From NCBI GenBank assembly GCA_002269645.1, contig NIVC01001006.1:62001-126000 (forward strand): a DNA stretch of 64,000 bases. Direction: 5' to 3'. How positions within the stretch are numbered: position 1 is the stretch's first letter; each line of letters opens with the position of its first letter. The notes under the pieces were generated by a model. It did no database searches. It was not told the DNA's origin and worked only from the letters and a program-made list of their open reading frames with translations. Shown here one piece after another: positions 6,543 through 13,853 of the stretch. Source of the DNA: Macrostomum lignano (taxonomy: Eukaryota). The position numbers and the translations under genes were made by a program.

Positions 6543-8527
6543 TTAACGAGGTCGCAGATTGTAGCCATGGTGCTGGTTCTCGGTTGATGTTTGTGTCTCC
6601 TCGTGTTTTGTTGCGATGTGGCGGTTCGCCGAACGCGTGCGATCAGCGTTGTCTAGTGACGGTAAAAACGTTGTCGTGTCAGTGTTGATCTTCTTTAGTC
6701 GATGAATGTGCACGTAGAATTGGTGCTGATGAGGATCTTGCACATTGGCCAGGCGTGCCGTTGTCGGTGACGTTAGTTGGACCACTCGATATGGTCCTTT
6801 GTACTTCTGTGCGTGTTTGTGCGTCTGTTGCGGCGGATAGTGCAGGTAGACGATGTCGCCGGCTGTCAGAGTTGTCGATCTCGTGTCGGTGCCGGTGGTT
6901 AGAGCCACCTGATTGTCGATGTTGTGCTTGGCTACTTTCCATGCGAGGTGTAGTTGCGTGACGAACTTTTGAATGGACGTCGGGACTTCCACATATTGCG
7001 ATGGTAGTAGTTGCTGTGCCAATAGGTTTGGCGGCTGGAAGTCTCGCCCAAACATTAGAAAGAATGGCGTATTGTCCGTTGATCGATGAATAGCGCTGTT
7101 GTAGGCCATTGTTACTGCTTGCAGATAGATGATCCAGTCGTCCGGTTGTTGATGCGCGAAGTGTGTAATCATCTCGTGTAGGTTGCGGTGAAACCTTTCA
7201 ACCATGTTCGCCTTCGGATTGTAGGTCGATGTGTAGATCTGCGTGATGTTGAGGATCTTCACCACTTGCTGAAAGAGTTGAGACGTAAACTGCGATCCAT
7301 TGTCCGATGTGAGGTTCTTTGGCGTACCGTACTTGCAGATGATGTCGTTGAAGAAACCCATTGCCACTGTCTGAGCTGTGATGTCCGGTATTGGTATGGC
7401 AATAGCAAACTTTGAGAAAATGTCCAAGGCTGTTAGGATGTAGGTGTAGGCTATGCCATGGAGACAGCTCGGTGGCAGCGGTCCGGTGATGTCGATGCTG
7501 AGACAGTCCATAGTTGTTGACTTTGGTATCGATTGTAGCTGTGGTTTTTGTCGTCGTCCTGTCTTCGATGCTGCGCATGAGTGGCAGTTGTTGCAATACT
7601 GCTTGATGTCGCCATGCATGCTTGGCCAAAAGTAGTATTGCTCCACTCTTGCAATGGTTTTGGCTGCCGACAGGTGTCCAGCGAGTGGGTTGTCGTGCAG
7701 CTCGTTGAGAATTGCCTGCCTAAACGAATATGGCATGTAGATTTTAGGTTTGTTGTCACTCATCCAGTAGAGTCGTGACTTGTTGATTGTTAAATGTTGT
7801 CGCTGCTTGCGCAGGAATTTTCGTTCCACGGGGCTGAGCTTGATGTCCTTGTCGTTGTTTTTAACTGCTATGTAGAAGTTGTCGTGTTCCGTCTCATCCA
7901 CCAATTCCTTGATGTTAGGGATTGGATGAATGGCGTTGACTTCGTAGGCTCTTGACAGGGCGTCCGCGGCCTTGTTAGTAATTCCTGGTTTGTAGACGAG
8001 CTTGTAGTTGTAGTCCTGGATCTTGAGTGTCATCCTGATGAGTCGGTTGTTTGTTTGTCCTTTTGTAGTTACGACGTAGGTCAGCGGTGCGTGATCTGTG
8101 CGTACTATCGTCTGTAATGGAGATCCATAGATGTAGTAGTGAAACTGTCGTAGGGCGAACAGAACTCCTAGTAGTTCTCGTTCCGTAGCTGACCATTTTG
8201 TCTCATTCGGTTTAAGTGCTCGACTGACGTAGGCTATAGGTCGTTCCTTTTTGTCTTCAGTTTCCTGTAGTAGGACTGCTCCGAGTCCCGTTCCTGAGGC
8301 GTCTGTCTCGATGATGAAGGGTTTGTCGAAGTCCGGATGCTGTAGCAGTGCGTCTGATGTCAGCTGTCGTTTGATTTCGTCAAAACTTTCTTGTTGCTTT
8401 TGTGTCCAATTCTCCTGCTTCCATTTGTCGAACTTGAGCAGGTCGTACAGCGGCTTTGCTGTCTTCGCGAAGTTGGGTAAGAACTTTCGGAAGTATTGCG
8501 CAAGTCCAAGAAATGATTGGACCTTCG
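6543..8527 (-). CDS. pol: RNase H and integrase (continuation of pol after a -1 shift near 8529)
   Basis: FIIETDASGTGLGAVL, ERELLG and RTDH (RNase H); HHCC zinc finger; IDITGP / SDNGSQF / VERFHR (DDE); YKGPY (GPY/F). Confidence 0.93.
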
Positions 8528-10300
8528 TTTGCTAGTTGGCGTAGGAAACTTTTTCACTTTATCCACGTTGTCTGGGTCCGGTGAAATTCCTTTGGCTGTC
8601 ACCTGATGTCCCAGGTAACGCACGTTGTCTCGGAAGAATTTGCATTTAGTTGGTTGTAGCTTCAGACCTTGACGTTGTATAAGCGCGAGGGCCTTCTCCG
8701 TCGCTTCATAGAGTCGTTCGAAGTCTTCTCCGTAGGCCAAGATGTCGTCAACATAGTGCAACAGGTTCGTGCATCCTGCAAGCATGTATGCTGTTAGTCG
8801 GCTCATCGTTGCTGGGCTGTTGCTGAGTCCCATCGGCGATCGATTGTACTCGTATACTTGTCCATTGTAGGTTTTGAAAGCCGTGTACTGTCGTGACTCT
8901 TTCTCGATTTCAATTTGCCAAAATCCATGACGTAGGTCGAACACTGTGAACAATTTTGCCGTGTTGAGCTTTGCTAGTAGTTCGGAGATCTTCGGTAGGC
9001 TTTGCTGATCCGTCGGTATGTACTTGTTCAGCAGTCTGAAGTCACATACGAGTCGTCTTTCGTTAGTCTCCTTCTTTTGCACCAAGAGACATGGTGATGA
9101 GTATGCTGAAATGGCTTTGCTGATGATGCCGTGTTTCAGCATTTTGTCGATAATCTCATCGAAGTGCTGTTGCAGATGCTTGGCGATCGGGTACGGTTTG
9201 CACTGAATTGGTTCCGTGTGCGGCAGAAGTTTGATTTCCTGTTTGATGTCCTTGGCTCGTCCGATGTCGTAGTCATGGTGGCAGAAAGCGTCGTTGTACT
9301 TCCACAACAGCTGTCGAACTTTCCTCTTTTGCTGTTCCGTAATCGGGCTGTCATCCAAATTGATCTTCTTTTGAAATTCTTCCTCTGTTAGTCGTGGAGT
9401 CGCTTGCTCAATCAGCATAACCGATGCTTGGGTGTTGAGATGACCGATGCACATTCCTTGTCGTAGATGAACCGTTTCTGTGTTCGGGTTGAATATTTGT
9501 ACTGGCAGCTGTTTATCTTTTGCAACCAGTACTAGTGCCGTAGGCATCATAATTTGGTGTTTAGCCGTGACTCTTCTGTTTGGGTCGAATATCATTGCTT
9601 CCTCCGTTGCGTTAGTTGCCTTTGCCTTTATCCAGCAGGCGCTCTCCGGTTGGATGATGACATCTTGTTGCAATGTTACTTTTGGTAGTACTCGGATCTG
9701 GTTGATCAATGGTTGTTCTACCGAGTCGATCTTAAACGTTTGCTTATTGAAGTCGAAGGTCAATGGTAGTCTAAGCTGCTTGAACGTGTCGATGCCAACA
9801 ATAACGTCCTGGTTTGGGAGTCTGTCGATGACGTACGATGGAACTGTCAAATGTTTATTAGCGATTCTTAAATCAATGTCGGCTTTTCCCAGAATGTTTA
9901 GCGAATGTCCTCCTGCTCCTGCAACTGCGATTGTTGCTGGCCGTAGAGCAAGTCGTAGCTTGTTGCACAGTTGTTTTGATATAACTGTGATGGAGCTGCC
10001 GGAATCGAGTAGCGCTCGACATGGTAGATTGTTGATTACCACTTGAGCCATGGCTTTGCCAATTTCGGCGTGTAGAGTACATACGTAGTTCTCTGGCCAT
10101 TTTGGGTCTTGCTGTTCTGCTTGATAGTTAGGTGGTTGTATTCTTGGTGCCGTTGGTGTTGTCGGAATCGATGGATATAGCCGCGTTGCTAGTGTCGGTT
10201 GCCCTTGAACCTCACGATGTGCAGTTTCTGTTAGTTCTAAACTGTTGTCGCCTTCCGTTGTCGTTCTTTGCATTATGGCATTCACTGTCTTCTTAGCTTT
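8528..10300 (-). CDS. pol: Cytoplasmic tail with late-domain motifs, aspartic protease and reverse transcriptase
   Basis: LLDSGSSIT protease motif; RT motifs RRLVCDFRLLN, FDLRHGFWQI, YNRSPMGL, YVDD, YLGH. Confidence 0.95.
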
Positions 10301-13800: not shown

Positions 13801-13853
13801 GTGCCAACTGTCTCTTTGATATCTCTGTGCACCGTTGGATTGCGCCGCGCCAT
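10683..13853 (-). CDS. gag: Gag (capsid plus CCHC knuckle), acidic linker, signal/TM and env-like glycoprotein ectodomain in one frame
   Basis: Gypsy-like gag N-terminus; CYYCGREGHYQIHC knuckle; hydrophobic WRLWIFWIIIILLTAVVTKATA; Cys-rich domain with NQT, NQT, NGT and NTS sequons; RRRR furin site at 11184-11195. The meaningful frame changes near 10840. Confidence 0.9.
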   Translation of the reverse strand: MARRNPTVHRDIKETVGTFSMEKDFNTFVDHFDLVCREYNLQNPEKAQLLPPLLQGTAREIYGKLDAATQQNYPALIIQLRAHFNRCGTNRSVLLHKLHNRRMQPTESFLTFVDDIRQIIKALHQPTLPAADQPPLGAAELAARERQRLMDREQNLILHVINNAQPSLRDRLLRENIETEEDLLRCGMQWEASAPLMTTGNTEVQKLTQQLNKLMQHQTAVIAEQKRRNERAQARCYYCGREGHYQIHCPHRSTRNDMQRQPFNRRKPQKPWQQHQNWQQQNTKRFGNNGYRPRNTRYMPKQPTQAMQRYANAITYTPESEQQEQQVFTIDDLEMDFTINEIDWLDVESSEKTKNISMVEMKETNIDSEEEKTEVSTEKTLSSDISERKEETNKSNDKELATKDDNERSNDGNAEMEEEQQEESSDHDYEMHNDADDNRAADKEHEDGRHKGMEERNLSSDSDQCYEIRYKRNGEAYIQTVDYKAEVRYRRQWSDTTTTSEESKEENDEDDKQRNESDALRSETPMEQEEEYDADVEDNEWQPQPMPAKTTATFRKWRLWIFWIIIILLTAVVTKATAMEKPMICPTDAHIQPMIYKIPTDIKCSYFKTNQTKPKKITIDLYKANIKKHRQLGIVCFRDKHLVEKIWRGQWNRIRFRQHELHVSHADCLRWNQTLFSKDGVLEPDEKVGNAQLFRTKNVANGRYVHYNERWPDYTARNSYLIRNVPFYYNPYEKMESLQLQLSECRYSEGWCPTPILRNAELYSLPLSPTYHPDYRWQIVHRADPHYEEPSKSRQYFFAWKVETEIDCQLQKYHTVEGGLLSNTFLAKSGDLALTFQKKPPTQLKCKIQTRHYFSEQEIPVYVKDEDKQTFLAIINGTYQQQEQQNRRRRDIERPKLVSNRLLSAKITALDHNLHNQLNHLHRTLVQLTCKMHAINLNYARQNYYVNPTMTFRKITGMTNVLAVPIYEHLLIYKCTPIQHFNILPSNTSTTCYDKPRIEAFYEGKRIQDSWTRYTTSSLAPQYRDLAPRQQTIINWTMHYTSSKQLERQQTSQNRK

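Follow-up and report, generated by a model that had tools for sequence, protein, structure and literature searches.

The 64,000-nucleotide stretch of the Macrostomum lignano genome analyzed here (contig NIVC01001006.1, positions 62,001 to 126,000; hereafter the window) contains a 10.7-kb Ty3/gypsy retroelement, running from window position 15623 to 4925 on the minus strand, in which an envelope (env) region lies between gag and pol. The element is real, was correctly read and is of a published kind. Taken together, the evidence makes it probable that it represents an active env-carrying Ty3/gypsy family (errantiviruses, broadly defined, with the GAG-ENV-POL order already in print) whose Gag, Env and Pol would be made as one chain with an in-out-in membrane topology. 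All element features described below are on the minus strand, and their coordinates are those of the window.

The window element is a very young Ty3/gypsy copy. Its two long terminal repeats (LTRs; 5′ LTR, 14548..15623; 3′ LTR, 4925..6000) are each 1,076 bp long, start with TG, end with CA and show 0 mismatches, and they are flanked by a 4-bp target-site duplication (15624..15627 and 4921-4924). A 12-nt primer-binding site (14534..14545) is located 2 nt behind the 5′ LTR; no tRNA genes were found in the 64-kb window. Gag (13107..13853) consists of a capsid-like region and a single CCHC knuckle (13148-13107), with weak matches to DUF1759 (E 0.002) and to retroviral nucleocapsids (E 0.002-0.06), and neither a matrix-like region nor a myristoylation start was seen at its beginning. 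It is followed by a fast-evolving linker, Gln-rich and then acidic (12186..13106), an internal signal-like hydrophobic segment (TM1, 12120..12185), an env ectodomain of about 575 residues (10391..12119) with the motif RRRR at 11195-11184, a second hydrophobic segment (TM2, 10318..10390) and a tail, putatively cytosolic, that precedes the protease (10046..10317). The pol domains then come in the gypsy order, namely aspartic protease (PR; DSG; 9788..10045; Pfam PF13650, E 1e-10), reverse transcriptase (RT) core (YVDD; 8600..9079; RVT_1, PF00078, E 1e-28), RNase H (RH; 8010..8408; RT_RNaseH, PF17919, E 2e-37) and integrase (IN) with its C-terminal tail up to the stop (6543..7733; Integrase_H2C2, PF17921, and rve, PF00665). 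The TG...CA LTRs, the target duplication, the primer-binding site and the pol order are those of Ty3/gypsy elements (Metaviridae), and the RT domain models and the YVDD motif also fit gypsy; the small RT tree mentioned below was built without reference elements of Ty3/gypsy, BEL/Pao or retroviruses. The first-pass annotation of this DNA had located gag, the CCHC knuckle, the linker, both hydrophobic segments, the Cys-rich ectodomain, RRRR and PR-RT-RH-IN, and all of these locations were borne out; its inventory did not delimit the LTRs and overlooked a RING-type open reading frame (ORF; 6219-6431).

The Gag-Env-Pol frame

In the window copy, the coding region is distributed over four frame pieces: 13976-10683 (1,097 codons; gag, CCHC, acidic linker, hydrophobic segment 12185-12120 and Cys-rich ectodomain), 10857-10282 (end of env and second hydrophobic segment), 10597-8360 (PR and RT) and 8531-6543 (RNase H and IN). 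The three frame changes lie near 10.83 kb (in the ectodomain), 10.30 kb (in the tail) and 8.53 kb (behind RT). It had been proposed that three single-base additions restore one frame of 2438 codons. Here, the case for a single frame was made from natural sibling copies. A protein search with the ectodomain (76 loci scored of 257 candidates) gave stop-free frames of 2,370-2,538 codons for 12 of 80 matches, including a subfamily just 63-64% identical; in the window's own subfamily, the frame was found to span 2,480 codons from stop to stop and about 2,440 from the first ATG, in good agreement with the proposed length. A single long frame therefore exists in nature.

The organization of the siblings is uniform. 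In a DNA search of the genome with the env segment, all 40 scored matches (of 90 candidates), at 91-100%, covered nearly the full length. Thirty-eight distinct copies were compared, 19 as 5.4-kb loci (the window included) and 19 nearly whole, with L007 and L039 representing one copy that was counted once. The order gag-linker-TM1-env-TM2-PR-RT was observed in 38 of these 38 copies fetched through env, and 18 of the 19 longer loci extend as far as integrase. In five of the 19, one natural frame runs from gag to the integrase core inclusive, and three of these five showed no frame change at all. Furthermore, the M. lignano proteins ALD16272, ALD16273 and PAA64473 were found to be continuous across all three places where the window copy is broken.

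The three breaks are more likely to be assembly errors than copy-level damage, and are unlikely to be signals. Short-read contigs of four runs, one per study, differ from the window at all three break places, and the 94 frame changes counted over the 38 copies are scattered in 49 different 30-codon bins. Because identical LTRs stand beside three breaks, assembly error is the simplest explanation; copying of a damaged template is a less likely alternative. The share of small gaps that fall in base runs (42/237, against a background of 13%) is uninformative. A separate observation concerns window 11315-14548, both ends of which are joined by contigs of three runs, with ends that are not GT-AG; this points to a derivative that has lost gag and the first half of env by internal deletion.

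The envelope segment

The ectodomain contains 12 Cys, 5-6 sequons and the furin motif RRRR. Because Pfam detected no family in env, its fold was searched, using a monomer model of a natural open-frame sibling ectodomain (574 residues, 23 sequences). In a Foldseek search of the PDB, herpesvirus glycoprotein B (gB) was found in every row listed (best E 1.8e-21, TM-score 0.46), and a Foldseek search of viral models was led, at E 3e-23 to 2e-22, by the glycoproteins (G) of Beihai rhabdo-like virus 3, Midway nyavirus and an orino-related virus. The top match in VIA-align was gB of herpes simplex virus 1 (Z 12.0, root-mean-square deviation 7.5, 402 aligned), followed by other gB proteins and rhabdovirus G. 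The alignment profile matches Epstein-Barr virus gB from sequence alone, with E 1e-14. In the model, the arrangement of domains is of the gB/G type, with a PH-like domain and a long central helix. The modeled ectodomain is thus a class III, gB-type fusogen fold, and its fusion activity is a prediction. The RRRR motif is located in a disordered loop of the model (residues 305-323), just ahead of the long central helix (324-370); gB itself is cleaved in the loop before the central helix. The earlier suggestion of a Cys-rich ectodomain with a fusogen-like fold was therefore upheld by Foldseek, VIA-align and the sequence profile. Herpesvirus gB and the G proteins of nyamiviruses, chuviruses and rhabdoviruses share with the window protein the same fold, a Cys-rich ectodomain and a C-terminal anchor, but identity to these class III viral proteins is 10-14%, and the window protein is internal to a retroelement chain, without an N-terminal signal of its own.

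Is env a maintained part of the element, did an ordinary gag-pol retrotransposon receive it by insertion of a separate viral gene or element, or is the join a chimera of the assembly? The second possibility was addressed with the 40 best gag matches, taken regardless of env. A protease match was found 3.75-3.94 kb behind gag in 32 of the 40 and an env match directly behind gag in seven more, whereas one was not resolved; no env-less sibling was found among the 39 resolved. Absence of the 10.3-12.2 kb segment from sibling copies had been named as a sign of a nested insertion. When dN/dS (the ratio of nonsynonymous to synonymous substitution rates) was compared between two subfamilies, it was 0.04 for gag, 0.42 for the linker, 0.10 for the ectodomain, 0.06 for protease and 0.01 for RT; the ectodomain value comes from 570 codons at a dS of 0.30, and amino-acid identity of the linker between the subfamilies is 58%. 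Hence, env is a maintained part of the element under purifying selection, and not a nested insertion. The insertion or chimera explanation draws on the difference between env DNA (85-98% identity among copies) and RT (92-100%). However, env is fused in frame at both ends in natural copies, and a second M. lignano family and unrelated records have the same one-chain layout, so that this explanation is largely refuted and very improbable. The mixed env and RT identities are instead due to recombination among subfamilies, which is frequent judging by mosaics: among L001-L039, some copies have env at 87% identity but RT 99-100% identical to the window. Multiple near-identical intact copies of the family are present in the genome.

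The layout extends beyond this family. An exhaustive search recovered 23 distant env relatives of at least 550 aa (three of less than 550 aa were left out), 15 of which have, within one chain, a gag mark ahead of env or a protease behind it; RT before env was found in 0. A word-based homologue search among long proteins gave one match among 2,365 candidates. The second M. lignano gag-env-pol family (P0003, P0028 and P0029; PAA86625) encodes chains of 2,852-2,859 residues with 30% env identity, and a small RT tree separates both M. lignano families from the remaining env-first records. Two side observations may be added: the ectodomain of the second family has a long Thr/Ser/Pro-rich, mucin-like insert ahead of the furin site, and a gag-env protein of the same kind (P0006) is labeled as coming from a Kangiellaceae bacterial genome bin, which probably contains animal DNA.

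Proposed membrane topology and one-chain mechanism

The natural 2,538-codon frame contains exactly two segments above the hydropathy cut-off (Kyte-Doolittle mean of at least 1.6 over 19 residues). TM1 scores 2.2-2.4, its preceding 15 residues contain 4-5 K/R and 0 D/E, and small residues occupy positions -3 and -1 of the likely cleavage site. TM2 scores 2.43, is followed by 15 residues with 3 K/R and 0 D/E, and is 97-100% identical between subfamilies. The orientation of both segments was read by the positive-inside rule and the -3/-1 rule for signal peptides. The two segments and their flanking charges support a putative in-out-in topology. Of the membrane scheme proposed in the first-pass annotation, then, the two segments and fitting charges were found, while the lumenal position, signal cleavage and enveloped particles are inferred.

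In the proposed mechanism, the Gag-Env-Pol chain would be made once. TM1 would act as an internal signal that threads env into the lumen of the endoplasmic reticulum (ER) and would be cut there, after which Gag would stay tethered to the cytosolic face; given that a matrix-like start is not seen in Gag, its membrane anchor may be TM1. TM2 would stop transfer and bring the chain back to the cytosol, where the protease of the element would therefore free Gag and Pol. Env would be cleaved by furin at RRRR, its trimers would collect Gag and Pol on one membrane, and a particle would bud with an envelope and enter neighboring (germ-line) cells.

The same chain and topology could also serve an env that acts inside the cell or between joined cells, by ER tethering, ER budding or cell fusion, with no infectious particle. 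The lack of a matrix-like start in Gag agrees with this, since TM1 could then be the anchor that matters. In addition, according to the available text of Chary and Hayashi (eLife 2026, PMC13524379), spread is unproven for nearly all such elements, and herpes gB requires partner glycoproteins, which are absent here. Against it, the whole ectodomain, with its 12 Cys and furin site, is kept at the low dN/dS given above, whereas a tether would need TM1 alone. The nearest viral folds, moreover, are lone G proteins of nyamivirus-like viruses, and such proteins fuse without partners. A role confined to the cell or to joined cells is accordingly considered improbable, and the budding of enveloped particles by the one-chain route is preferred.

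Several points weigh against the one-chain, enveloped reading. The ectodomain model has a predicted local distance difference test score (pLDDT) of 70 but a predicted template modeling score of only 0.41, and whole-chain TM-scores against gB are 0.40-0.46. Topology was judged from hydropathy and charge counts in place of dedicated predictors, and the mechanism is deduced here from DNA sequence alone. A single chain would yield Gag, Env and Pol in equal amounts, which is an awkward ratio for a particle. At the two break places outside the env-pol junction, the contigs disagree with the window fully in one run and partly in three. Finally, the env-pol junction just behind TM2 is shifted in 11 of the 38 copies, more than any other site, and four of the 11 shifted copies have one local haplotype, so that an inherited frame variant may exist there.

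This hotspot bears on a further explanation, in which most Pol or Gag would be expressed separately, from a spliced or internally started RNA or by slippage at the env-pol junction, with the full chain as a minor product. Two GenBank polyproteins start inside env, as separate expression might give, and Cer1 splices a single long frame according to the available part of its description (PMC10309623). However, shifted and unshifted copies at the junction have common local haplotypes, except in one group with four of five shifted; the gap in shifted copies is placed in five ways; and the short-read contigs there disagree with the window in all listed depth and contain the unshifted form only. A programmed frameshift at the junction was judged unlikely given the common haplotypes and the unshifted contigs. 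No GT-AG joint within the coding region was present among the 15 joints listed, contigs being a weak test of splicing.

An RNA-level signal could likewise leave a trace at synonymous sites. In a zone of about 1 kb (window about 10100-11100), over the C-terminal half of env, TM2 and the tail, synonymous variation is nearly gone: in 15 representative copies, nine of 134 four-fold sites are variable, compared with 167 of 410 elsewhere. No account of this zone was found in the published text available. The zone was picked after inspection of the data, the copies are recombinant, and no stable RNA fold was detected in it (best z -1.96 among 22 windows, none folding better than z -2). For these reasons, a sweep by recombination is as likely as an RNA-level signal. 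Overall, split expression is regarded as unlikely, and translation of Gag, Env and Pol as one chain remains the favored account.

Published relatives, accessory genes and the surrounding window

The first-pass annotation knew of no precedent for this architecture. That claim did not hold, since GAG-ENV-POL gypsy elements with a gB-type env have already been published (PMC13524379, crediting the nematode case to Sacco et al. 2022). As far as the available text of PMC13524379 goes, gypsy elements or errantiviruses of Nematoda, Bryozoa and Platyhelminthes contain only ENV of the herpes simplex virus (gB) type, in the order GAG-ENV-POL; the gB-type ectodomains can have two flanking transmembrane domains; and the elements of this order are not monophyletic. 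The window element resembles them in its Ty3/gypsy pol, its gB-type env between gag and pol, its two transmembrane segments and its many recent copies. Supplementary file 1 of the same paper lists Platyhelminthes_Rhabditophora_Mlig_errantivirus_2 as gB-type, with 16 copies and an LTR-to-LTR distance of 9,727. Its 12-nt primer-binding site is identical to that of the window element, the host species, taken from the closest named proteins, is the same, and the LTR-to-LTR distance is similar (9,623 here); the window element thus probably belongs to the Mlig_errantivirus_2 family, an assignment based on primer site and host and not on an alignment. Three 7-residue env motifs gave 0 matches in searches of the supplements of PMC13524379, which brought up no sequence row of Mlig_errantivirus_2. 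The words "polyprotein," "single ORF," "fused," "frameshift" and "RING" do not occur in its main text as available, which thus offers no discussion of accessory genes or of a one-chain mechanism.

Other relatives differ in instructive ways. Nematode endogenous retroviruses (NERVs; Sacco et al. 2022, J Gen Virol, doi 10.1099/jgv.0.001739), as seen in the part of that work available, are similar in that a metavirus took its env from an RNA virus and has it ahead of pol. The window family works like a NERV but is not classed as one, and its closest named proteins are from flatworm. NERVs reportedly have one continuous gag-env-pro-pol ORF with a Nyamiviridae-like env and extra ORFs behind pol, and are said to form a monophyletic RT clade limited to chromadorean nematodes; the continuous frame is found here, whereas membership of that clade is not. 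Atlas virus (Belpaoviridae) has identical LTRs and a polyprotein of 2,828 residues that combines Gag, Pol and Env, according to the available text of Merchant et al. (2022, PMC9094657), but is of the BEL/Pao type, with env last and a class II, phlebovirus-like fold. The GenBank entries ALD16272, ALD16273 and PAA64473, called "retrovirus-related polyprotein," are 93-97% identical to window pieces and run from env into PR-RT-RH-IN in one chain; unlike the window element, they lack gag, start inside or just before env, and have env unannotated. Cer1 was considered as a precedent and rejected, the extra ORF behind its pol not being env in the available description (PMC10309623). Neither env nor the window element is mentioned in the available text of PMC12801592 or PMC4604429.

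Other features of the window lie outside the element. An intron-free ORF of 1,454 codons (50351-54715, minus strand) has a P-loop region matching SAMD9 (E 6e-6) and possibly encodes a SAMD9-like, antiviral NTPase. A broken Helitron with PIF1 helicase and Helitron_like_N pieces is located at 29753-33855 (minus strand). The regions at about 21500-25500 and 36000-47000 are made up of a tandem array with a 23-bp unit and of longer repeats that contain TTAGGG runs of the telomere type; such runs also occur at about 19200-19270.

The window element also contains, behind the integrase stop and ahead of the 3′ LTR, an accessory ORF (6431-6219) with an MGxxxS start and a RING finger, which is truncated to 70 codons with its RING damaged in this copy. 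In siblings, the ORF has 124-222 codons and two RING-like motifs. Searching with the ORF of a sibling yielded 145 matches out of 150 scored; about 20 copies closely similar to the window one have the same premature stop, and others are open for 124-260 codons with identity down to 50%. Several elements have at least two accessory paralogs in tandem, and some contigs have at least four matches within 10-20 kb. In one fetched example (L040; 628-1296 and 3-557, minus strand), a 222-residue protein with two RING-like motifs is followed by a second such gene. Because the window's subfamily still copies with the gene truncated, the accessory gene appears to be dispensable or supplied in trans.

Pfam RING matches of these proteins, at E 1e-4 to 3e-3, are below the curated cut-offs, and among solved structures the TRIM31 RING is the best relative (E 7e-4). 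Look-alikes in Atlas are viral RING proteins, at 0.87-0.92, and the recognition value falls slightly short of the threshold of the tool. Word searches gave homologues in 0 of 12 and 0 of 93 candidates, and a single-sequence model was useless (pLDDT 36). "RING" has 0 occurrences in the available main text of PMC13524379 and in that of PMC5408684; a description of the cassette was not found in this thin literature basis. The first gene of the cassette starts with a myristoylation-like motif. Among viral proteins, arenavirus Z is a myristoylated RING protein. It is tentatively proposed, with more doubt than confidence, that the one-chain Gag-Env-Pol is paired with a fast-changing, tandemly amplified double-RING cassette, whose proteins may be membrane-bound ubiquitin ligases directed against host defense or a stand-in for matrix, while TM1 would tether Gag in the manner of the flavivirus capsid anchor.

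What does this family add to the known elements? With its layout in print, it is for the most part a confirmation of a class that is known, if obscure. Beyond the published text as available, it contributes the one continuous chain, two transmembrane segments whose flanking charges fit, the purifying selection seen on env and the double-RING cassette, the remaining novelty being this cassette together with the predicted topology. PMC13524379 states that the way in which gB-type errantiviruses enter cells is unknown; as a young multi-copy family in a model animal, the present one would allow topology, processing and particle formation to be observed. If the cassette is a set of counter-defense ligases, gypsy elements would gain a type of accessory gene that is new for them, and if the RING reading is true and TM1 tethers Gag, the retroelement would rely on polyprotein topology for its assembly and bring along an arsenal of ligases of its own.

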